A stretch of DNA of 64,000 nt from Saccostrea cucullata (taxonomy: Eukaryota): assembly GCF_032062105.1 (NCBI RefSeq), contig NW_026930986.1, positions 124,001-188,000 of the forward strand. The letters are read 5' to 3'. The notes beneath the pieces are model-generated. The model saw only the letters and a list, made by a program, of their open reading frames with translations. It searched no databases and had not been told where the DNA came from. The position numbers and the translations under genes were made by a program. This document shows positions 26,884 to 45,543 of this stretch, one piece after another (position 1 is the first letter of the stretch; each line of letters opens with the position of its first letter).

Positions 26884-29800
26884 CTAGGCCTTTATGGAGA
26901 GTTTCTCAAACCTTGACATCCAGCCATCGGCACTGGACCTGTGAATAATCAAATGAAAATAATCCTATACTGACAGCCAATTTAACAAGAAGTACAGTAT
27001 ATTGTATTTTGTATTAAATAAGAATTTACTTATCAATTTGATTGCTTCTTTGAGGAAGTAAATTCAAGTTTAAATGACAGTTCTATTGATATTTAATGAC
27101 TGACTACAAATAAACAGAACACAATCTCTGGGGAAAATATACAGTGAAGCATCATTTAGTCTTCATTAGTACTCCACATATTTTGAAATAAATCTAACAA
27201 TTGCTTAAAAAATTAAATTATTTCAGAAGGATTAAACATTATTAAAAATCTTAATGAGTGTGTTTAGGAGGTGGGTTAAAAGGTTAAAAGAACTTCACAG
27301 CTGAACATAATAATAGATTATAATGTTCATGATTATACACTATGAGTTCATCTTTGAAGATATACAATATCATCATTTAAAATACTTCACTTTGAAGATG
27401 TAAACAGACATGATCTACACTTTGAAGATGTAAACATACATAATTTACACTTTATTATCATGTATAATTTTGCTAGAAGCATCACTCGTGAAATAAAATT
27501 TCTCGCATGCATAAATTACATTTTTTAGGTGCTGAAATCTAATTTAACTGTTGATCAAATGTAGTCATGTATAATTTACACTCTGAAGATGTAGTCATGC
27601 ATACTCTACACTTTGAAGATGTAGTCATGCATAAATTACACTCTGAAGATGTAGCAAAACACATTCTACACTTACTGAACTTCACTTTTTAGGATCTACT
27701 CTACACTTACTGAACTTCACTTTTTAGGATCTACTCTACACTTACTGAACTTCACTTTTTAGGATTTACTCTACACTTACTGAACTTCACTTTTTAGGAT
27801 CTTTTCTCCAGCCAGCATCATATCAGCAATGCGGGACACAAAGGGGTCAAAGTTCAAACTTGCAGCTGCCACCACCTCATCTCCTCTTTAAAAAAAAATG
27901 AAAATCAGGAATAAAATGACAATACTTCAACAAGGTTGCTTTTCGCTGTTATTCAATAAATTTATCTGGTATTTCAGGACATAAATGTTGTAATGACCGT
28001 CATGTGATGAGCTTACTTTGTGTAGTAGGCAATGAACTTGGGAGCATCCAGGTCTCCATGTACAATGATGTCATCATATCCTGGACCATAACCTTGATAG
28101 CAACAGAAAGGTTAAAAGTTATAAATAAACTGTCTTCTAGAATAATACGATTTGTAATTTAACACATTTGATTTTTATCATACACAGTCAAAATATTTCA
28201 AATTACTTTCTCCAGAAAATTCTAGTCTTTTTTGTTATCCAGAAGTTTGCAAATGACACATACTACTGTCATTTTAAGGATTACAGACAACTTTTAATTC
28301 ACAATTAATTTATTCCTCTTTAAATCAAGTTAGAACGATGTAAACATTTTAAAGGTACAGTACCAATTCTATGAATTATTTTCTTTTTCACTACAAATTT
28401 GATATAGTCACCTGTGTAGCGAATGCTTTTCTTATACTGTACTGTCCAAAAGAATGGCACACTTCTAATTGGTTCATCTTTTCCCAAAATTCCAAGGGCT
28501 GCTGTTTTTCCTAAAAATAAAATACTAGCAATTAAAAGTCATTTTCAGATATCACATTTGTAGTACATGTATTAAATGAAATTAGACTTATGTTTTGTGA
28601 CTATATAAACCATATAACAATCAAAGTACTCAGAAGTACAGAGAGCCGGGCTCATTTACAGAGTAGAATGGATTTCTTACATGAATCACGTTTATATTCT
28701 GATGAAAAAATTATTTTAAAACTATCAATATAAATGATAAGACACTGACAGTGAGTTTTTCCTAATACCACGGTCCGATTTTGTCAGAATCAGAATTTCT
28801 GGTACCGCAGCTGAATGTAAAGAAACAGGCCATTCTGGTTCCCTCTCCTGCTTTACCTCGTTTTGTGACTATATATCAAAAATCCTTATGCTAATGAACT
28901 ATGTTCTTTGACTTATGAAGTTTTCAAAGTCATTACTACAAATGTTTATTTTATATAGATAAAAACTTTTGAGATGACTTTAAAATAGCGACTATTGAGT
29001 TAGGACCACATAAGCCGGCAATTGCTCCATACCATGTGCATGAGCCATCTGCCAGTGCTGGACATTAACTTTTTGATCTCCAACACTGAAGAGTGGGAAT
29101 TCCACAATGTCACCAGTAGCATAGACATCTGACTGATTTGTCTGCATCATCTTAAAACAAATTCATCAAGTGTAAATGTGCATCTATGATCGATAGGATG
29201 TATTTACATTTCTTTTCATCAATAGAACTCTTCTTATTCATAAATACACTATTTTTCTTTGCTTCTCCTCCATTGGCATATTCAAATTAATTAAAATATA
29301 CTCTTTAGCTACTATTACTTACTTTATTTACAGGAATGAATCCTCTGTTAGTCATGTCTATACCAGAATCTTTGATGAAATCAGTAGCAGGAACCACACC
29401 TGTCAAAAGAGAAGTTTACTCCCAAGTTTTCAAGAAGTACTGAGTAAATACATGTAACTACATGTACTACATGAGTCTTTAGATTTAATGTCAGACTCTT
29501 GTTTCTCTTACCTACTCCCATAATGCACACATCTGCTGGTAGCTTTGTGTCATCAGATAAAACAGCTTCAGTCACTTTACCATCACTCCCTACAAATTCC
29601 TTGATCCCCCTCTCAAAATAAAACTTCATTCCATTGTCTTCATGCATCTTTAAAAGATATTTTTTTAGAAATAAGCTTTTAACAAATGAAAACTTCAACA
29701 AAATTAAATCTACACCACCTGAAGATTTTGCATAGTAATATAACAATGCCCATGTCATTCTTCATCAGATTTTTAAAGATTTCCTCCATAAATATTTCAA

Positions 29801-32800
29801 ATTGAGCATTTGTCCCATGATCGGAAGATGATTGGTGTAATCCCCCATCAGCAACTGATCAAAGTTGATAAAATTAAGTTGCTACTGTTCACCTAGCACT
29901 CAAAAGTCTTATGGATGATCTGAAATCTTCAACAGAGGTCCAATGACAAGTTTTGAAGTATATCTAAAATTGTTTCTAAAATATTTCAAATGAATCTTTG
30001 CTCCCCTATTGTGGCCCCACACTACCCCTTGGAACATGATTTTAACAAATTTGAAAATTCATCATTAAATAAATATATGCAGCAAAAAAAATAGCATTTG
30101 ATAAAAAAAAAAAAAACAAACAAACAAAAAAACACAGGTGAATGATGTATTTGCTTTACATTAAACCATTGAGATTTTACCTTTTTGAGCAGGGTGCCAA
30201 TTTTTAATCCTAGAGTATTTTGAAATGGGACTTTTCCTCTAGCTAACACAGATACAGATCTAGCTTTGTCTACAACAGAAGCTGCCACCTCCATCCCTAA
30301 GCAGAATAGTTCTCAGTTATATTTTATACACACACTTCAGGAATGAATGCAAGGAATATTTTATATGGGTTGTGTGCTGCAAAATGTGGAGATGACAAAA
30401 TATATAGGGAAGACTGTATTTCGAAGATTTCAAATTCCAGATATGTTAAACAACATGGGTCTGCAAAGAATATCTGACAGAAAGATAATGCATATTTTGA
30501 TAGACGAATGCTTTTAATTGTGGAATTCTACATGGAATTTTGTTATTCCTTTTATTTTGACTAGGCAATATACAGGCAGTTACAATTTTAAACACTTGAC
30601 TTTTAGGCTGAAATAATACACCAAAAAGAAGACGTGGTCATCTTTTTTTATCTGTACCCTGATACAGGACTAATTCAGGCTATACCGTATTTAGTCCTCA
30701 ACATATAAACAACATCCTACACTTGGGTAAATACACTGTATTAGTCTGCTCAACTCTACACTTTGGCAATTGAAAAGAATATAACGAAAGAATATTAGTA
30801 CACAGATTTTAAAAGCATTATAACTTGTCTGAGGAAATGTGCAAGCTAGTGATACAGAAAAAAATAGTGCAGTGTTAATTGTGAATAATTTTGAGGAAAA
30901 TCAGTGCTTATGTTTCTCAGTGAATGAGGTGTAGGTATATAAAAGTAACACACTATTTCACAGCAAGACAGAAAAAAATGAATCTAAAATCCCATCACCA
31001 TGCAAGACAAATCTAAAACCTAGAAGACAGACTTTTTTGGGTTCCACAATTTTTAAAAAAAAATTACCATCTTGTAAATATTAAATATTAGTCTCCAAGG
31101 TTTTAAAAAGTCACTATGCACCACTAAAGAAGCACATTTAACAAGAAACTAAGCATTATGTGGTACCTTCTGTAAAACTGATCCCACTTTCTCTCCTAGA
31201 ACCAGCTGGAAGGGGACTTTGATTATGTCCACCACTGAAACAGTGGCAGCGGTGCCAGCTAATGCAGACGCCACCTCCATTCCTGTTCAAGAAAGTCAAC
31301 CCAAGTTACCACACCATCCGCCTGCTTTACTTAAGCAATGTACAATATGTATTTATCCTGCATCTAAAAGCACCTGCCTGTAAAGTACTTTCTCAGATGT
31401 TGCAAAAGTTTCATCAAGATCAATGTTTTAAAAGCAATTTTCTGTCTGATGCACTGTAAAAGTACCTCACAAATACCTCTGCTGCAACAGCATATCTTTT
31501 ACAATTAAGTGCTATGTGATGTAACATTAATTTGTTATAAAGATTAAACAAATATTTTTGAAACAAAGAACTAAGAATTTTTTAGCATCTTATACTATTA
31601 CAGATGGAGTAATAACTAAAACCTCTTAAATATGAAGACTGAGGACAAAAACTTTTATCTTTTTAATTATAAGTTGAACTTTAAAAATTGGAATCAATAT
31701 TGAAAATGGACCATATATCTTAGCATTAATTATAATGCCACTCAAAAGGTGAAAATCAAGAAAATATTCCTTGCATTCATTTAATCAATTGCTTTGATGT
31801 TTGAAAATCAGAAATACACTTGCAATGAATCGCATTCAATTATTTTTTTAATTTTAATTTTCAATGTGTTTTAAAGTAAGCAATAAGCAAATTTACTGAA
31901 TATATCTGATTGACTAATTCCTTGGATCATTGCATTCTTTGTTTACTGAGAAAACCTGACAGTAACATCGCACGACCACTGAAATGAACGAAGCCATCAG
32001 ACAAACCAATGAACGAGGATCCAATAATGACAACATTTTTGCCTGCAGCCTTTTCCGCGATTTGATTGGCATCCTCTGGAGTTCTCAGCTGATAAACATT
32101 CTCTAGATCCGTTCCTGGGATTGGTAACACTCGTGGTCTGAAGAAAGATCAAAATAATCCTCATATACAGTTGAGAATGTGATGGCATATCAGTGTTTCA
32201 TTTAAGTTCTTTAAATGTGTGTGATAAGTATCTAAATTTTCATATTATTTCCATTAAATAGGAAAAAATTCATGTAAATCCAAGTAAAAATCTTTTATAG
32301 AGAACCTTTAATGTATAAACTGGAATTAGTTTGCATTTTTGTATTAGACTGATAGAATTTATAATGTACAATGTACATTTATCATGTTTATGCATTAAAC
32401 TATACTACTGTCTTTTTTAAAAAATCTAGAATGTTCTGTTATCACAGAAAACAAAATGAATGTTGGATAAAATGATTTGCAAATGATAACAAATAATTGC
32501 ATAATAATTAGTCTGAGTCTAATTAAGGCTAGTTTTATCATCAGAAACTGTCTTACCGCCCTCCTGTGGCGACGACTAGTGACGTGTACGATTCTGTGCT
32601 GCCATCTTTGAAGGTGACTGTCTTGCTGGAAGTGTCTACAGCAGTCGCCTAAATATCATAAGACATGAGGGATAATTAATGAAATATCATTTCTATTTAG
32701 TGGGTACTTTTACACAGATCAGATAAAATAATATTGACCTTTAATCTATTCTAAAGATATTCCTATATCTTCGTGCTATACTTTTGATTCACTGAGTAAA

Positions 32801-35800
32801 GTTCATCAAGTGAGGTTCTTGGAGAGTAATAAAATCCTCTGTTTTATATTCAGAAGCCAAGGTGACCTCAGTTTGACATAAATTATGTAAGAGACATAAA
32901 CAAATCAGTGCTACTGAAGTGTAATATTGTACCTGTTTCTGTTTAAGGATATTAATGTCAGCTTTGGTATAAAAGTCCAAGCTCCTTAGAGCTATCTTAT
33001 CTGCTGTCATGTCCAATGCCTAAAAATTAAAAAAAAATTATTTTACGAAACGTAAAAGAGAAGAAAATCAAGAAATTTTGAAATATTTTATGTAAAATTT
33101 TGTATCAAGCCAGTGAACTCCAAAAACCTTGCTAAGTTTGGGTCTGTCGTACGGAATGTTGTTTTCTTGTGTTGCTATGGTGATTTCTCCAGTAAACCCT
33201 TCCTGTCTCAATGTTTCAGCACAAGTCACAGAGGAGGGGCCTAAAAGTACAAGATTTTGATTAGTTTAGTGATTTAATACACTGAACATTTGGTTTATTT
33301 CATAAATCCGACAAATTTCCAAAAATCCATGAGTGAATATTTTCATCATGTTTAAACATTTACTATACAAAGTATTGAAAATAAAAATTCATTAAAATAT
33401 AAAATGCTAATATTTCTTCTCATGTTTTTTAAAATATCAAACTCACCAAATATTCTAAATGTCAAAATACCTATAATGCAGTATAAAATACATAAATGTG
33501 CCAAAACCATATAAAATTATCTCAGTTCAACACATGATCAATCGTGATTATTTAAAATGATTAAAGTTAAAACAGATATCCTCGTTACCTCCACCTATGA
33601 TAAGGACTTTTTTGTCACTGGGTTTGGCTGCTTTACACATGTTACGCTGGACTTTAGGATCAGCTAGTGCTGATTTGCTGGCAGTGACTTTAACATTGCC
33701 ATCCTTGACTTCAGTCTGGAAATGTCAGAAAGTCTGTCAGAACTTTATCAAGTTCATCATCATTACACAAATTATTGTAAAAAAACAGTGAATTAATTTC
33801 AATGGCAATAAATACTACCACAGATATAAGTACCGGTACACAAAGATATACATTTAACTTCATAGATCAACACTTTTATTTTAAAAATTCAAATAAAATT
33901 AAAATGGATATTTTATTTAAATTTCATGAAATTACATTGATAACTTTGCACTCAAGTTTCACTACTCCTGTATGCATTTGGTATTTCAGCATATCATGCC
34001 TGAGTCTATGCACACAACATTCAATGTTTATTATTAACCTTGAACTTTGGAATGCTGTCTAGTCCTGGGAAGTCTTCTATATCCCCCGTTTTCACACTGA
34101 AGCAAGCTCCGTGCCAGGGGCAGCGGACCCTGCCATTACAGTGACTTCCATTGATGAGTGGAGCCCCGTAGTGAGTACACTTAGATCCCAGAGCATGGAA
34201 TTCTGGTCCTTCACGGACAACTAGGACCTTACCATCACCAAGGTCAAACTCCTTCATCCTACCATTATAAACAGGGAAAATGTCATCTTTATTTTACACA
34301 TGTACCAAAAATGGAACTCTTATCAAGTGCACCTATGAGTTCATTCGGTTTTTTAATTCACATTTAAAAATCTTCCTTAACTCTTACAATGAAGAACAAG
34401 AGGCCCACGGGCCTTATAGGTCACCTGAGTAGCATGTAACAACTTTCCAACAATTGAATTTGGTTCGTGTTTTAAACCAGAGGCCATGATTTAAATTCAC
34501 AAGTTTGAAAGAGGCACCATTGCTTATCATAATTATACACTTGGCACGCTTACTCTAGTTACTTAATACCCAAAGGTAGATCAGAATAACAAAGAGAAAA
34601 TGCACTTCCACTTTATAACCAGTTGTGAATCCCACCCCACAGGAACCACTGACCCTGGGGCCAAATATTTCAAAATTTTGGAAATTTTATCATAAATTTT
34701 ATTTCATCATAAATGGTTGATTAATACCAAAGAGCAGATTTAAAAGCATTAATTTATTTTCAGACTATGTAACATCCCACCCCCACCCCACCCCTCAATA
34801 CCCCTGACCCTGGGGACCTGAAAGTAATCATTTTGCTAGATGCACCTTTCTTCATCATAAATATAGTTAGATCATTGGCATAAAACCTGAAGCAAAGGAA
34901 AAGGTTTTCTAAGAATTAATATATTTTCACTATATAATCAAAAGACACCCGCCCCCTTATAGCAAATGGCAAAACCCTTAACCCAGGGGCCATAAGATTC
35001 ACAAATTTGGTTGAGGCACTCTTGCTCATGATAACTATGTACTTAGTTTATATAATACCCAGGAGCAGAGAAGAAGATTTTCTAAGAATTAATGTCTTTT
35101 CACTATATAATCAATTGAGCCCCCCCCCCACACCAGAACCCCTGACCCAGAAGCCATAAAATTCACAATTTTGGAAGAGGCACTCGAGCTCATCATAACT
35201 ATGTACTTAGTTAGTTTATTTGATACCAGGAGCAGAGAAGAAGATTTTCTAAGAATAAATGACTTTTTCATTATATAATCTTATCAATAGAGCCCTGCCC
35301 TAACACTAGATCCCCTGACCCTGGGGCCATAAAATTAATAATTTTGAAAGAGGCACTCTTGCTCATCATAACTATGTACTTAGTTAGTTTATTTGATACC
35401 CAGGAGCAGATAAGATTTTCAAAGAATTAATGCATTTTCACTATATAATCTATTTAGCCCAGCCCTAGCACTAGAACCCCTGACCCTGGGGCCATGAATT
35501 TCACAATTTTGGTAGAGAACTCAATGCTCATTACATTCATGCCAACAGTTTGATTGCTTGATGTCCAGGAGTAAAGAAGAAGATTTTTAAAGATTGCACT
35601 AATTTTAGTGGTTTTGGCCCCATCCCCCAGGCCCCAGGGGGGCAGGGACCATGAAATTCAAAATTTTTGTTCCCCTTCACCCATAGATGCTGTATACCAA
35701 ATTTGGTTGAAATTGGTTCCGTGGTTTCAGAAAAGAAGCTGAAAATGTTCAAATGTTAACACACGTATGGCACGCCAAATTCACAAAAATGAGCTAAACA

Positions 35801-36421
35801 TAGTTTCACAGTCGATAAACTAGGTTTATCGGTTGCAAACTATAGTTTACGGACTGTAAACTATAGCTAACAATGTTAATCTATATTTTACATCCGTAAA
35901 CCATAGTTAACGCGATAATCTATGTTTCACAACCGTAAACTATACTTAACACTAAAAACAATCATTTGCAATTGCAAAACAAAGATTATCTGATAAATAC
36001 AGTTTCACGATTTGTAAACTATCGTTTACAAACCGTTAACTATAGTTAACGATCTGATAAATATAGTTTCACGATTTGTGAAACTATGATTAACAACTCT
36101 TAACTATAGTTTTCGATTGTAAACAATAGTTTACAAACGTGAATCTATGTTTATCAACAAAATCTATTGTTAACGCTTATTACAGAGAGATAAACTAAGA
36201 TTATCATTCGTAAACTATAGTTAACAACCGTTAAATACAGTTTTACAGATGAAAACTATACTTAACGAATCGTTAACTATACTTAACGAATCGTTAACTA
36301 TAGTTTACGATTTGTAAACTATAGTTTACAGTCGATAAACCTAGTTTATCAATTGTGAAACTATGTTTATCTCATTTTTGTGAATTTGGTGTGCCATACA
36401 CACGACGACAGACGAAAACGG

Positions 36422-36461
<40 letters not shown>

Positions 36462-39400
36462 TCCTATTAAATAATCTAAATTGCTTCCTTTTGACACTGA
36501 ATATTGAATGTAAACATACTAACCCAGGAATAATGGTAAGTGTATAGAATGAAAATAAATTTTTTTAAAAAATCTGAGTAACAATATGGATTCATCATTG
36601 ATTATTGGACCAATATTGTATTTTGTGCTCTACTCTTTCACATGAATTATCATTCCCACATACATGCTGGTTCACTGAATCTTCTGATATACATGAATTT
36701 TCCTCCCACTGTAACATAAAATACCCCTTCCCCTCCCCCCTCCTGAATCAAAATGATTCTACTGTGACTATTTACATGTACAAAGTATTAGTTCCTTTTA
36801 CAAGAAATAACTTATTAGATTGTAAGTACTTTAATAACTCACTCTCCATCCTTGAGATCAGATTCTCTACAGACGACTGCTGACACTGTGTCTGCCATAT
36901 CCTCTACTGAATCTTCCTGCTGCTCCACACCAACACCGTCTGTGACAACCTGGACTGGTTCTCCTTGGTCTGGTTCCTCCTGATCTTCTGTCTGTAAAAA
37001 CACAGCACTCACTAACAAACAAATCCTCTTCAAAAGGATTTAAAATATACTGGAAATTATTTCAGAGCCAGTGCTCTGTAAACCAGGTATTTTCAGTCAG
37101 GTTTGTTTAAGTTAGAGAAATCCTAGTTCTGAGAATTTGGAACACATGTTTTTATCTGTGTTTTATGACCTTTTTGTAGAGATGACAAGTTTAACACATT
37201 AATGGTGAAGTGTTCGTCTGATCATTAAAGATGTCATACACCTGTAACAAATGACAAGCAACCAGTCCCTAACTGCAAATAAGACTTGCTGTGTATGCAC
37301 AAAGACTAGATAATGAGAAAACCCGTAACACTGTGGTCACTTCGGGGGCTATTTGACACTTGTAGTGTACATCTAATATTTTCTAGGTGAACAAGTAATT
37401 AAAAATAGTTCTCTTAACAGTCTGGATAGGTTGTCTCCATGAGAACACATTTATGCTATATAATAATGTTAATTAAAACTACAAAACATAACACAAAATC
37501 ATGACAATGATAGCTGTAGTAGTTACTTGTTCTAGATGTGTTTCAGATCTGCCTTGTGTTACCTGCTCTGTGTTGTCTGGCTGTGAGTCGTCTGCTATTG
37601 TGGCTTCCTCCTCTGTCGTGTCTGCTGGTTCCTCCTCTGTGGTATCTGGGGGTACCTCCTCCGTTGTATCTGGTGGTACCTCCTCTGTGTTATCTGCTGG
37701 CTCCTCCTCTTTATTGTCTACTGAGCTAGGCTCCTCTGAGGGTGGCTCCTTGTTTGTGTCCTCAGGACCTTCTCCTGTCTCCTCCTCTTCAGTGTTCTTT
37801 ACTTCAGACTCCTCAGCCTCTTTCTGATTTTCTTTCAAATCTTCAGCCTCTTTCTGAGGTTCCTCCGCTTGGTTTTGAACGTCTTTGTCAAGATCTTCTT
37901 CTTCTAAGGGACCTTGTTCCAAAGTTTCTGATTCAGATTTCTCTTCTTTCTGGTCCTCTACTTTTAGTGTAGTTTCCTCAGAGTTCACTGTTTTACTAGT
38001 TTCAGAATTTTCTTCACTACTGTTATTAGCATTTACAGAATCTTTAGAATCATCAATATTATTTGTTTCACTAGATTCCTCTGAATTTTTAGTGGTTGTA
38101 GTATTTTGTTCACCACTCACTGCATTAGAATTTTCTTGAGCATGAGCACTGCTATCGTTTATCGGCTCCTCTTTGGTCACTGGGAGACTGGTTCTATTTA
38201 TAGGTGTGCAGTCCACATTTTCTGATTTCCCAGAATTCACGGAATCAGGGTCTATATTTTTAGATGTCCTAGCTTCTACACCATTGGATTTCTTGCTGCC
38301 TGATCTCTTCTTCACAGATTCTCCAGCTATAAAATAAAGGTCATAATTTATTAAGCTTTATGAAATTTATTATGCATATTCAATTCAAAAATATCTTATA
38401 TATGATTTAAATTGAATTGTTTCAATTATGTTATCCTATAGAAATATACATTGTATGTGTTGCATACATGTATTGCATGCATACTAATAAAATTGTATCT
38501 TATCTTCTAGTAAAATTTTGTGACATATCAGTACACAAATACTGAGAGCAAATTCTACTATCCCAAAGTACTTTGTATTTGTATTAAACCCTTTCACATA
38601 TTTCTTTAATATGAACGTGTCACAATGAGCATTTTATTTACTTTGTTTCTTCTACAAATATTGAAATAGGTGTGTCAGGGAGACACTTATGCCCCTGGTT
38701 AGCATTTAACATGCAAGTTTAAAATAAATGTCCAAGAGTGTGAATATAAAAAATGGTGTAAATGGCCCAAATATGATGAACTTGATCTATCTGTCCTTAC
38801 ATATATCCATTATCTAAATTAAAGAACCCTTTTAAGAACAACAATTGAAGTTTTCTTCTTTGGGGAATTAACCTGGTTACATTAAACATGAAAGTGTTCC
38901 ATGAAAGACAAGCTGTCCATCCAAATATTGGATATAGTATAGCTATATCCTTCCCACATCACACAAATACTTCAACTTTAATGAAATCAAACTTGGACAC
39001 CTCTCCTCTTTTGGGGTCTCGATCATCAATGATTTTTTTTCAGATAAGTTGTCGATTTTTTAGCTTAAATAATAATAATCTGTAATCATTTAATCATATA
39101 ATATATAACACAATTATTATTGTTTTCTTAATTTAGTTTGATGATTCGGCCACCTGAGGAGTAAATATTCATTGAGCATGCATACTGACCTCAAAATGTA
39201 CAATATTTTTTCATCATTCTTCATTTCACCTCAGATTAAAACTTTTAAAGAACCAACAAAAATTATTACATTGGAATGAAGTGAACTGATGCATACATTT
39301 AATTTTTCACACTGAGAAACATACATATTAATATAATAGCTACATTACATTTATAAACATGCTATTTAAATTTAAAAAGTCTACCTACCATTACAAAAAC

Positions 39401-42400
39401 ACAACAAAACTTCTAACAGTAAAAACTTGGCTTAGGTTTATAGTAAGATAGACCTTGTTTATAATCTTTAAATACCCCACATGACAAGCTGCCTGGGTCT
39501 GAGATGATAAATCAGTACTAAGAGAGGGAACATAAATTAGAACGTTTTCTGATAACAGTGTTTTTAAATCATACCAGATCAGGGGCCTGTTTCACAAACA
39601 TTTCCTAAGATATGTCGTAAGACATAACTTAAGATATGCCTAAGTTATAACTTAGGAAGTTCCAAGATTTGTCACAGCTGTTTCACGAAACAATCTTATC
39701 TTAAATTTTTCCTAAGTCATTTCTTAAGTTGTACCTTTATAAGGACTAATAACTTCTCCGCTCTATCTACAACTCTCAGTATGTCAGTCTGGGTTATATT
39801 TTTAGCTTCAAAAAACGGAGGGGATTATCCCCACTTTCAAAGGACTTGGACAGAAGTAAGTTTTACTTTGCGAAGTTTGCTGCTAGAACTAAGCATTCAC
39901 AGACACACCCTTTCAAGCCTTCTTCCCATCCGAGCACACGACATATGTATTTTTTAAAATATTGTTCCACGTTTTATAGGTTTACTTTATTTTGCTCTTT
40001 ATAAAGTATCGATCCCGGGTATTGTTTTTTACTATACTTTTCTACTTGTCAATTATTGAATGAAATTTTAAAATGATTGCTTCTTAGTGAACACATGTGA
40101 GGGCAATAAAAAATGCTTTTCTAATGACTGTTCCACGTTAGTTGTTCGTGCTGTGTAAAGCTTTCTCACATATATAAAATAAGAATACCATGCTAGAAAA
40201 AAAATCCCAAATTTGCGACTACAGATATGAAAATACCAAAGAAGAAGTTAAAAAAGGAAATTTATTGAAATCTCTTGCACAGCTATACATTTATTAAGCT
40301 GGGAGCATAACTGGTTGTAATCGCATGTCCGTAGGAACTTGAAGAGCACGGGAGGGGGGTATAATAATAATTTTCCTATGTATAGAATTCTATAGAAAAC
40401 AAAACTTCGTTATGTTTGTGTCTTCTCAATAATAACGTCCTAGAGGAGATTATCTGCAACCATTCTTGGGAGAAACATCTACTAGTATATATCCGGAGCT
40501 TGGTTGGGGGTTCATCAAAAATCATGTACTTATCTAAAGTGAACAAGTGTTTTCATTCATCTAGAACATCCTTTTTCAAATTCTATTTTAATATCCATTA
40601 ATATATTAGTAATATATACATAAATATACATGTACATGTAGATAAAAACATATATGCATGCATGTTTACTAGTTGGATCAAATCATGTGCTATTTTTTGT
40701 TAACAAAGGTGTGCTCTTCAAATGATTGGGAATTATTCCAGTATGTGTACATCTATTTCGCCAACTCTAATTTTGTGAACGGATATTTTTATATACCTTG
40801 GACAATTTTGATACATGTTGGCCAATTATTGAAATTCTAGTATTTACGTGCAAAGTAAAGCAGTTTAACCTGGATAGAGCGAAATCATCCATATACTAGT
40901 AGTTCATTGGATTTTCTCTCCCCAAACACATTCTCTCTCTCCATAAGAAATCTTGGATATGCAGTCGTATTATTTAGTTTCTTCCTAAGTCATCGATTTA
41001 CCTGTCCTAAAGTTACGACATAACTTAGGAATATCCTAAGATAAGACGAGGTTAGTGAAACGGATAAGTAATGAACTTAGGAAAAAGTTCTTTCCTAAGA
41101 TATAACTTAGTCCTAAGTAAGCTTTGTGAAACGGGCCCCAGTACTCTATATACCAGATGTATGTACTAACTTAAAATTAATTTACATTAAGGAATAGGAT
41201 TTTCACCTAGCATAAAAAGAAAAAATAAATTAACCAGTGCTATAATGAAAAGAAATGATTATCCCAAGTCATATCAAAGCAACCTATTTCTTGATGATGT
41301 ATATAATTCAATTATAGTTTTAATTGCAGTGTTGATCACTCTTATAAGGGAAAAAACCAGACTGGATGGATCTAATTTTGTAAATTAACATATGTGGGTT
41401 TTGTTCTCTTATCAGGTACTATTTTGGCACCAAGTTAAAGATCACTGATAGGTTTGTTGTTCAGGTAATTCCTAATAAGGAAACAACTCTTCTGATTGAT
41501 GGTCTTTGGACTCAGTTGTCATGTTTAGTCTCTTACCATTCCCATTTCTAACAGATTCTTATTCATAACTCAATCAAGAAAAAAAAAATGAAAAGCTAAA
41601 TCTACCTTGCAGTTACTATAGGTCTTCTTAATCACATAGAATGATAAGTGAGCAACATTACAAACCAAATTCTAATTTTGCTGTTACAGAAAAATATGAC
41701 TTCATATTATATGTATTTTGATGACAACTTCTAGTTGCACACTTTAATGCACTTAGTTTATACATAGGAGAAACTGTTGAAGACTAAATACTTTGGTCCA
41801 CATGTAATAAAAAGAGTAACGAATTCTTCTTGATGGGGGTGATATATTGTGCTTGAGAGGGTGATATAATATGGACCTTAAAAGCATGATATATTGTGCT
41901 TAAGGGGTGATATATTTTGCTTGAGTGTGATATATTTTCTTCAGGGGTGGGGGATGTGATATACTGCCCTATTTTATACTAGACAAGGCTAACTTCTCAG
42001 AAGAATGACTAACCAGTACATGTCCTGTCTTACTATTGTTATAGTAGACAACAATAAAATCTATACCTATCAAGTATCTGAGACCCTGTCCCAGACCGGG
42101 CTGGGCTATATATGGTAACATAACATGTTTTGTAGTGTATTAGGCTGTCAGTAATCTAAGCATTAAATGCCTCACTGCTAGTGCCATGCTGGGAGTGTCC
42201 TTGTATATCCAAGTTTATTACTAATATACTCCATCTGCATAATACACATAATTAGTATAGTATTGAAATTTACATAACAATGGGATAATACTTTAAACTG
42301 TTACCATGCAGATGTAAATGTCAAGTCTATGCAATTCATTTATACATATACCAGGTACAAATTATTGTAACAGTTAAACTGGAGTATGATCTCAAACACT

Positions 42401-42887
42401 GATATCATGAATACCATGGATATTAATGTCAAAGTAATTTGGAAGTCCCAGTGACTTATTATTCTTAAAGCATTTGAAGTGTTACATTCAATTATCCCAA
42501 AACCTTGGATAATACCTTGGTCCAGATGGGTTTGAAATAACAAGGTTTGACTGTATTTAAAATTCTGTATTCTAATCCTTTTCCATTTTGCTTATACATG
42601 CATATCATTTCCTTAACACTATTTAAATATCAATTTCATTTTGGGGGGGGGGGGGGGGGGGGGGTTGAGGTATATATAGTCTATCTGAAAGATATGCTAC
42701 GACATCAGTAATGAAGTGAGCTTAAATTTTTTATCATGTTGTGTGATATCTGAAAGTGAAAAGGAAAATAATATTCCCAATAGCTGGCTATTAAAACATC
42801 AATGAATAAATTTGTACGTATTGAATATTTGTATCATAAATTACTCTCACCAATGCTGGCTGCTTCATTTGATGCACAGACTCCCAT
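26884..42887 (-). CDS. AIFM3: Apoptosis-inducing factor 3-like Rieske [2Fe-2S] / FAD-dependent pyridine nucleotide oxidoreductase
   Basis: Exons 5'->3': 42887-42851, 38326-37563 (or 37527), 36991-36843, 34258-34039, 33715-33589, 33240-33128, 33019-32933, 32648-32557, 32137-32007, [31282-31167 or 30296-30181], 29647-29512, 29399-29323, 29150-29033, 28510-28412, 28092-28017, 27885-27781, 26938-26884. Rieske [59 protein letters not shown]. All phases consistent. Confidence 0.93.
27666..27801 (-). repeat. 35-bp tandem repeat (4 copies) reiterating the donor of the penultimate AIFM3 exon
   Basis: CTACACTTACTGAACTTCACTTTTTAGGATCTACT at 27666, 27701, 27736, 27771. Degenerate related units at 27385-27660. 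Confidence 0.95.
30181..30296 (-). CDS. AIFM3: AIFM3 mutually exclusive exon B (116 nt)
   Basis: ttag|GGATGGAG...AAAAAG|gtaaaa. Encodes (G)[38 protein letters not shown]. Confidence 0.9.
31167..31282 (-). CDS. AIFM3: AIFM3 mutually exclusive exon A (116 nt; absent from ORF track)
   Basis: acag|GAATGGAG...CAGAAG|gtacca. Encodes (G)[38 protein letters not shown], with the same length and phases as exon B. Confidence 0.9.
34395..36460 (+). mobile_element. HINE-like element carrying a satellite array of about 170-bp units
   Basis: AACAAGAGGCCCACGGGCCTTATAGGTCACCTGAGT start. About 6 units CCCCTGACCCTGGGGCCAT..AATTTTGG..GAGGCACTC. End ATAGGTCACCTGAGTGACTCAGGTGACCTAAAAA. Confidence 0.8.
35766..36398. 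mobile_element. Foldback-type MITE nested in the HINE
   Basis: TIRs TATGGCACGCCAAATTCACAAAAATGAG. Interior built of about 21-bp AAACTATAGTTTAC units. CACACG on both flanks. Confidence 0.85.
37590..37715 (-). repeat. 24-bp coding tandem repeat in AIFM3 acidic exon
   Basis: [32 protein letters not shown]. Confidence 0.8.
39583..41138. mobile_element. PIF/Harbinger-type non-autonomous element
   Basis: cag|GGGCCTGTTTCACAAA ... TTTGTGAAACGGGCCC|cag, with a 3-bp CWG TSD and subterminal CCTAAG repeats. Confidence 0.85.
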
Positions 42888-44359
42888 AACAGTTAAATCT
42901 AAGTCCTGAACTTCAACAATGAGCACAAAACTTTAAATTTAATAATTCTAGGATAGATGTGCAAGTCCAAGAAATATTTGAGAGTGTCACAAATGACTAT
43001 AAGGGTGGGGTACAGAGTTTACTGTGTATAGTTTATCTCCCAAGACAAATGTATCCTCATAAAGTCAAGGATTCCTATAAAACCATTACCCTGATAACAC
43101 TTAATGGGAAAGGTAATGAAAGATTCATCTCAATCAAGTCCTAGCTAGTGACAGACCTCTGCTAAATATGACTGGAAATCAAACTATTTAAAACATTTTT
43201 CAAAATATTTGCAGATGCATGTGTATATTGCTGTTACTTTGCTTGAAACTATTATAACATAATGCTGGACAAAATTAAGTTATAAATGGGCATAAATGTA
43301 ATTGCAAACTAACAATAAAAAAATGGACACTCATGAAAAAGACATCAAATTTGTTTCCTTGCTGTTCTCTTCAATAATTCAATTCTTTAGAAATATTAAA
43401 ACATAAGAGTTATCTCCCTTAAGATTGAAAACTGAAGTGTGTGTCACCCCAAAGAAACCTCAGGGAAATACTTTAAATTTTCTCTCTTGGGTTAAATTTG
43501 ATTACATAAGGTGTAGAAAAGGTCTTCATTTCCTTACAGAGTCAACTAATCCCTTCCTGATCAGTGATCTAAGCCCTGGAGACTGGAATGATTAAGATTT
43601 ATACTGGATGAGTCCACAGATTAGTATCAAAAACCCTCCAGACCATTAGATATATATCTTACATATCATAGCTTTTAAAGATCCACCATCTCATTCATTT
43701 ACACTCTTATTGCCATCTCATCCTCAATTTCATTTTTAAAAATTTATAATATTGGATCTCAGTCAAGTTTTTATCTGCATGCAGGCTATGAGTTTGAAAA
43801 TGAAATAACATCTCTATCAATATTTTGAGCCATGGGAAAAAAGTGATAGACATCAACTGCAATGTTATAGTAACAAGAATAGTTTTATATGCTTCACTGA
43901 TTTAAAGTGAAAGGTGAAATCTGTGGGTTCTTATAAATCTTCATCCTTCAGGAATATATATAAAAAGACATATTCAGTCCATGTTTAACCTAATTATGTA
44001 TACATGCAAAATCTATGCACTTCTACATTATTAATATACCAGTCACTACTCGATTGTATGCATTTTCTCAATAACATAATACCTGAACAATTGAATATGC
44101 TGCATTTTTTTTACATGCAGTATTGCCATAAATTCGCAGAAAATTCATTCTTCTGATAAAATATTTTAACATAAACAGAACACTTGATCTATATCCAATG
44201 TACAGTAAATGAAAAACAAGTAAATACATGTGTATTTAATTAGTAAGTCACATATCAAGTGAAACATGTTCATGTACTAGTATGTTTTAATTAGGGGTGT
44301 ACATATAGTATATACTATACAATCATGATTTGTGATGTAACAATTGTGATTTACAATAT

Positions 44360-44520
44360 ATAATAAAACAATAATGAACTCTTTTGGTGTTGAGTACGGT
44401 TTGTTGTTCACCAGAAAAATAGCAAATATTGACCTTGGCTTCCCCGTGGTTAATATTGATATCTTCTGGTGAACAACAAACCATATCTGACACCAAAAGA
44501 GTCCATAATATTGTATGATA
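44360..44520. mobile_element. Palindromic MITE
   Basis: CTCTTTTGGTGT..GGTTTGTTGTTCACCAGAA / TTCTGGTGAACAACAAACC..ACACCAAAAGAG arms. Confidence 0.7.
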
Positions 44521-45509
44521 TTCAATGACATATCAAATAAACACTGATATTGTTAATGTTTTTGATATTTACATAAACTCAGCTTTCTGAAAATGAAAAT
44601 ATTTCCACTTCATTCCATTTTTTATCTGTAAATCTATAATCCCTAGCGAATCCATCCTATGCTGAGAGGGAAGCCATCATAATTAGTGTTTACAGAAACT
44701 GATTGTTTGCCATTCTATACAAAGGACATAAATGAGATACTCATGATCAGGAGGTCTTATAAATAGTAACACAAATTATATGCTGTAAAAAGAGGAATCT
44801 TTGACAATGTATTAATAATGAATATGTGGTGATAATGAACAGTATACCAGCTCGAAAGTCCAATAAATTACAAAACAGGAGCGGAGACAATAAGGACACT
44901 ACAAGTTTGGAGCAGAGGAAACACAGACCTCCAAAATATCAGAGGTGGGATCAGGTGCCATGGAGGGGTGAGCATCCCCTGCTGACCAGTCACACACTCT
45001 GTGTGCTCCTTGTCAGGTTTCGAATGAATATAACAATTATCAAAGTTTCCAATTCCATAAACAATTTTTCTAGAAAACCACAGTTTCCTCTCTTAAATAT
45101 AACCACTTTTACAATATACTCATGATCATGATTTAAAAATCCAAAAAGATGATTCTAAATCCAAGTATATCTTGGCAGAAAGATCTCTGTATTAGAAATT
45201 ACTAATTTAGAACAGGCAGACAACAATTTATTCTGCTTTAAGGAGAGCTTATATTAATTGTTTCTTTAATGCAAATATTAAAAGCAAATTTGAGTTTACA
45301 AAATCCAACTTTCTGCAATAACCCTGATTTTAAATTTAAAGAAATTTCAACATGAAATTTACATCTCATACTGCTCTAAATAAACTGATTGTGGGCTTCC
45401 CATCAGCTAGTCTTTTTGTACTTTTTGAAAGCTGATATAAAAAAAAAAACAACTTATTTTTAAATTAGTTAATTACTATATACATGTAAATGCAGGTGAT
45501 ATAACTTAC

Positions 45510-45543
45510 TGAAGTCGTAAGATTTGGACTGTCCTTTGCCCAT
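45510..45543 (-). CDS. AIFM3: AIFM3 alternative first coding exon (MGKGQSKSYDF)
   Basis: Strong Kozak CACCATGG. Phase-1 donor TTCA|gtaagt is compatible with the acceptor at 38326. Candidate acceptor tttttcag at about 45632. Confidence 0.7.

Follow-up and report, generated by a model that had tools for sequence, protein, structure and literature searches.

The tandem mutually exclusive exons of ACOX1, OGDH, KHK and PKM are close parallels to the locus described here: in these genes, as in ours, homologous exons of the same length are swapped, the pair is ancient, and one product is the major and the other the minor form. Mutually exclusive exons also occur in a redox enzyme of oysters, AOX, where the minor form of exon 10 goes up under air exposure (PMC5589949), and in snail Cav3, where the choice between exons 12a and 12b switches ion preference (PMC9694082). 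In the human catalogue of duplicated exons the residues in contact with ligands are usually kept (80.6%, PMC9741552), whereas in the AIFM3 pair described here they are the only columns that are fully class-specific.

On the enzymatic side, BphA4 and putidaredoxin reductase are oxygenase-coupled NADH-ferredoxin reductases, to which AIFM3 is about 27% identical, with the difference that its Rieske domain is fused to the reductase. Animal AIFM3 (AIFL) has the same architecture of Rieske, Pyr_redox_2 and Reductase_C domains as the oyster protein, but shows varied single states of the cofactor loop (G-R-S, G-I-E or acidic) where the oyster has a pair. Unlike the E175/T176/Q177 mutants of BphA4, the two loop states of AIFM3 are natural and chosen by splicing. 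No description of an AIFM3 exon pair, or of a splice-linked change of cofactor, was found in the openly accessible literature, and the original prediction likewise knew of none for AIFM3; neither AIFM nor NADP is mentioned in the accessible main text of two human duplicated-exon catalogues (PMC8373072, PMC9741552), and the accessible part of PMC8431184 makes no mention of isoforms. The isoforms are already in databases, where they stand without comment.

The window analysed is a 64,000-nucleotide stretch of the Saccostrea cucullata genome, in which the gene and the exons under study lie as follows.

26884..45543, minus strand: AIFM3-like host gene encoding 832 aa
32007..32137, minus strand: constitutive upstream exon, with the dinucleotide-binding motif GSSFI(G) at its 3' end and its donor at 32006
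31167..31282, minus strand: alternative exon A (116 nt; residues 574-611), the major form, whose loop D591-I592-I593 is of the predicted NADH type
30181..30296, minus strand: alternative exon B (116 nt; residues 574-611), the minor form, whose loop A591-R592-G593 is predicted to accept NADPH
29512..29647, minus strand: constitutive downstream exon, beginning at Met612; RNA contigs show it joined to A and to B

The host protein has an acidic disordered N-terminus followed by a Rieske domain (residues 305-388), an FAD/NAD(P)H reductase (424-722) and a Reductase_C domain (741-807). An N-terminal Rieske domain fused to these two modules is the architecture of AIFM3, and the best named homologues of the protein are AIFM3. 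About 290 acidic disordered residues follow the N-terminus, mostly encoded by a single 774-nt exon (38336-37563). The N-terminus itself (45543-45508) carries Gly2 and Ser6, a pattern characteristic of N-myristoylation, and is common to oysters, mussels, a scallop, an abalone and Biomphalaria; other molluscan AIFM3 isoforms have presequence-like N-termini instead. A 35-nt tandem repeat (27665-27802, 3.9 copies, 98% matches) has as its unit the end of the penultimate coding exon and its splice donor, which places four donor-like sites in tandem. Further repeats, with periods of 173 nt and 21/64 nt, lie in an intron of the host gene at 34973-35517 and 35988-36369 and are probably transposon-derived.

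Exons A and B lie next to each other, have the same length and phase, and are homologous, forming a tandem-duplicated pair. The original prediction had placed them exactly: their positions, the length of 116 nt, the AG/GT flanks, the phase of 1 to 0 and the quoted peptides all hold on the minus strand of the window sequence, and the frame is open in both. The upstream exon ends at 32007 within a split Gly codon and the downstream exon opens with ATG at 29647, and the reading frame is kept with one 116-nt exon and broken with both or neither, as had been foreseen. The two exons are identical at 68/116 nucleotides and 19/38 residues, with the 19 differing residues scattered along the exon, and exon B, compared with the genome in six frames, matched at the sites of exon A and exon B only. 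Both forms are represented in RefSeq by proteins of 832 aa that match the window exon by exon: XP_062568725.1 (X1) contains exon A and XP_062568726.1 (X2) contains exon B, the latter with a modelled junction from the upstream exon to B.

To place the pair in a wider context we surveyed the best 120 of 1656 homologues together with the listed members of 21 clusters, up to 15 for each cluster. Within this set of annotated proteins both cassette types are present in at least 23 species, comprising 14 bivalves and 9 gastropods; the pairs of other species are predicted proteins, and the tandem genomic order was seen in this window alone. Comparison of 23 isoform pairs found 22 of equal length, and in all 22 the differences are confined to the 38-residue cassette; the remaining pair, from Lingula, is unequal in length and has a single cassette type. 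These observations strongly support the predicted mutually exclusive use of the exons, and the retention of both among the proteins of these 23 bivalves and gastropods strongly supports the accompanying claim that both are under selection. Among the isoforms listed, one cassette type was found in Argopecten, Octopus (4 isoforms), Lingula (2 isoforms) and one Logan oyster cluster. Exon A only, with boundaries identical to those in the window, was found on another mollusc-like contig (L003). Downstream of exon A this contig has a perfect 17-nt inverted repeat (1008-1024 and 1299-1315), and a 10-nt word at 974-983 recurs in the A-B intron of the window near 31000; either may be due to chance.

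Even after cassette positions 17-21 were masked, the 37 rows (19 of class A, 18 of class B) separated by one change (support 91/87), and each of the 37 had its nearest non-congeneric neighbour in its own class. The persistence of the split without the loop positions, together with the grouping of neighbours, indicates two orthologous classes, which would most simply derive from a single duplication before the divergence of bivalves and gastropods. That divergence is Cambrian. Outside the molluscs the loop reads G-R-S/G in a brachiopod, echinoderms, chelicerates and a coral, G-I/L/V-E in fish and G-K-S in frogs, and is acidic in a sponge and in tunicates. Both loop states may exist in other lineages, through exon or gene duplication.

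Consideration of the cassette column by column gives insight into what distinguishes the two classes. Across the 23 species only three of the 38 positions, residues 591-593, show no overlap between classes, and positions 581 and 599 are near-diagnostic, with an overlap of one. All 23 A exons have Asp at position 591, where all 23 B exons have a non-acidic residue (Val, Gly, Cys, Ala or Ser). Position 592 is Ile, Leu or Met in A and Arg in 19/23 B exons, including 14/14 bivalves and 5/9 gastropods, the four other gastropod B exons having Thr or Gln. Position 593 is Ile or Val in A and Gly, Ser or Thr in B, with Gly or Ser in 22/23 species.

Residue 591 is the last of a predicted strand (586-591) and aligns to Glu175 of BphA4, in agreement with the fold mapping originally predicted for this segment. 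The alignment, in which residues 3-65 of a 65-residue isoform B query match BphA4 chain residues 148-210, is free of gaps, and 591-593 are therefore equivalent to BphA4 175-177, which form the loop at the NADH ribose; in the same register residue 575 corresponds to Glu159 and residue 599 to Arg183. All of these BphA4 residues are named NAD contacts (PMC7397466); Glu175, for which a role in repelling NADP has been proposed, binds O2B/O3B of the ribose (PMC7397466; bioRxiv 10.64898/2026.08.07.743380). The acidic residue of the NADH-specific loop of the BphA4/Pdr type is present in isoform A (Asp591) and absent from isoform B (Ala591), which fits the NADPH-accepting pattern, where the strand closes with a small or hydrophobic residue and Arg comes next. 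By alignment, putidaredoxin reductase has Asp at the A-class position and the CoADR of P. horikoshii has V-R-G at the B-class site. Triple mutants of BphA4 at E175/T176/Q177 were reportedly made by Nishizawa in 2014 for conversion to NADPH. The structure PDB 4h4x is BphA4 E175A/T176R/Q177G, with a triplet identical to the A-R-G of exon B.

We propose that isoform A is NADH-specific and that isoform B accepts or prefers NADPH, a reading to which we assign a probability of roughly two in three on the strength of homology. From the biochemistry of the family, Asp591 of A would bind the 2'- and 3'-hydroxyls of NADH and repel a 2'-phosphate, while Ala591 of B would make room for that phosphate and Arg592 would bind it; electrons would then pass from FAD to the Rieske [2Fe-2S] cluster and to an onward acceptor. 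Related enzymes with natural or engineered changes at this site are consistent with such roles. AIF has a 100-fold preference for NADH (PMC12135473), and P. horikoshii CoADR has a Km of <9 uM for NADPH vs 73 uM for NADH (PMC6026696). Changes of the acidic residue to Ala and of the next residue to Arg took phosphite dehydrogenase from NAD to NADP with a ratio of 2.8, and the same changes in the NAD(P)H oxidase of S. mutans appear in the same review table (PMC5817062). No kinetic data on any AIFM3 isoform were found in the open literature.

The predicted switch between NADH and NADPH is well supported by homology, but its second half is open to a milder reading, in which the exons are truly alternative and B only relaxes specificity to dual use, or alters the rate, product release or charge-transfer stability. 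In MDHAR the E196A mutation raises NADP affinity 16-fold and leaves NAD favoured about 3-fold (PMC5031999), so that loss of the acid alone does not invert preference, and CoADR, with its V-R-G loop, still turns over NADH (PMC6026696). The lack of Arg in 4/9 gastropod B exons, the lower mean identity of B (0.52 vs 0.75 for A) and the class dependence of position 599, the counterpart of BphA4 Arg183, point in the same direction. Against this, the retention of Arg592 in 14/14 bivalves and of Gly or Ser at 593 in 22/23 species suggests positive selection for phosphate binding beyond mere loss of Asp, and the B triplet equals that of the designed BphA4 mutant. We regard a merely relaxed B as unlikely, although B may extend cofactor use to both NADH and NADPH rather than invert the preference.

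The 19 differences between A and B are spread over the exon, and the near-diagnostic positions 581 and 599 lie outside the loop; this would also suit a functional difference elsewhere in the cassette, in the helix 574-580 or in 598-615, affecting partner binding, oligomeric state or stability with the cofactor unchanged. The tendency of human duplicated exons to keep their ligand residues (PMC9741552) speaks for the same idea. However, the sole fully diagnostic columns are the three loop residues, and few other accounts would explain why a site known to set specificity is always Asp in A and never acidic in B, which makes an unchanged cofactor very improbable.

Use of the exons was assessed in assembled contigs, mostly 90-99% alike, from 8 of 24 listed runs, 7 of these 8 being presumed RNA by guess. 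Of the junctions proposed as a check, that from A to the downstream exon was found in 8/8 runs, from the upstream exon to A in 7/8 and from B to the downstream exon in 3/8, but the junction from the upstream exon to B was found in 0/8; since contig assembly drops rare paths, its absence from these contig sets is no proof that the junction does not exist. In all 8 runs exon A is free of differences, while the flanking exons have 1-7. Among the 10 listed of 33 differences in a B contig, one lies within exon B and is synonymous, and none is in the repeat arm described below. RNA contigs tile the A-B intron (30297-31166), which indicates that it is retained or slowly spliced, and leave the intron before A nearly uncovered.

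Each of the three runs that contain B has a contig in which the downstream exon is joined to B and B adjoins, without splicing, the A-B intron. Together with the missing upstream junction, this is the chief finding that counts against a simple reading of the pair. It could be argued from this arrangement, and from the missing junction into B, that exon B serves chiefly in regulation or is a remnant in this oyster, being spliced downstream only in non-productive or unfinished RNAs that retain the A-B intron and yielding little B protein. We give this little credence. The length, frame and structural residues of B are preserved in 23 species, RefSeq models the upstream junction here, and full-length B-type reading frames occur on transcript-sized Logan contigs. 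One such contig, of 3167 nt, encodes P0018, a 903-aa full-length B-type mussel protein, which implies splicing from the upstream exon to B in that mussel lineage; its A-type partner, P0024, differs from it at 20 residues within the cassette and 6 outside. A second full-length B-type frame is P0022. In the C. gigas cluster 10/10 listed full-length Logan members are of type A. Taken together, the junction counts, the C. gigas members and the mussel B form show that exon B is real but a minor form.

In Dscam-type exon clusters, splicing is controlled by RNA pairing between a docking site and selector sequences. A candidate arrangement of this kind is present in the introns flanking exon A.

31761..31781, minus strand: candidate docking site in the intron that precedes A, formed by the 5' arm of a 21-nt inverted repeat whose arms match perfectly
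30342..30362, minus strand: candidate selector, formed by the 3' arm of the same repeat and lying 46-66 nt ahead of the B acceptor
31600..31617, minus strand: a weaker lead, one arm of a candidate stem whose predicted partner is 31321-31304, where the branch point of A probably lies; 3/60 shuffles were as strong

None of 200 shuffles reached a repeat of 21 nt (maximum 18), although inverted repeats of at least 21 nt also occur in 3/26 other tiles of the window. The 21-bp duplex has a predicted energy of -28 kcal/mol, matched by 0/60 shuffles, and a modelled ensemble pairing probability of 0.95; the region before B is single-copy in the genome. An overlapping candidate selector for A is weak (70% complementary, -13 kcal/mol). 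A search for orthologous loci gave one contig, which holds exon A alone, and none that carries the two arms of the repeat. As in the Dscam-type system, the putative duplex is long-range and intronic, joining the upstream intron to a site just before the distal acceptor; unlike in those clusters, only the selector of B is strong here. We suggest that A is the default splice choice and that base pairing between the two 21-nt arms would place exon A in a loop and draw the upstream donor close to B. Products with both exons or neither would be frameshifted and probably degraded.

Our data indicate that A and B are an ancient pair used one at a time, the choice between them likely setting pyridine-nucleotide preference. 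The fuller picture would be of a splice switch of redox currency in place since before the bivalve/gastropod split, in which an NADH enzyme alternates with an NADPH-preferring one whose loop matches a protein-engineering solution, and in which a long-range RNA stem selects the minor form; for this combination as a whole we see an even chance.

The existence of two natural isoforms that differ at the cofactor loop makes the electron donor of AIFM3 directly testable, and the ratio of A to B junctions is measurable in existing RNA-seq for studies of intertidal stress. The AIFM3 pair also breaks the pattern of ligand-residue retention seen in duplicated exons (PMC9741552). The cell keeps NADH and NADPH in distinct pools, and enzymes that draw on one or the other are as a rule encoded by separate genes. 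If our reading is true, the exchange of an exon would shift a single enzyme from one pool to the other, a form of metabolic control of which we have found no description in the open literature.
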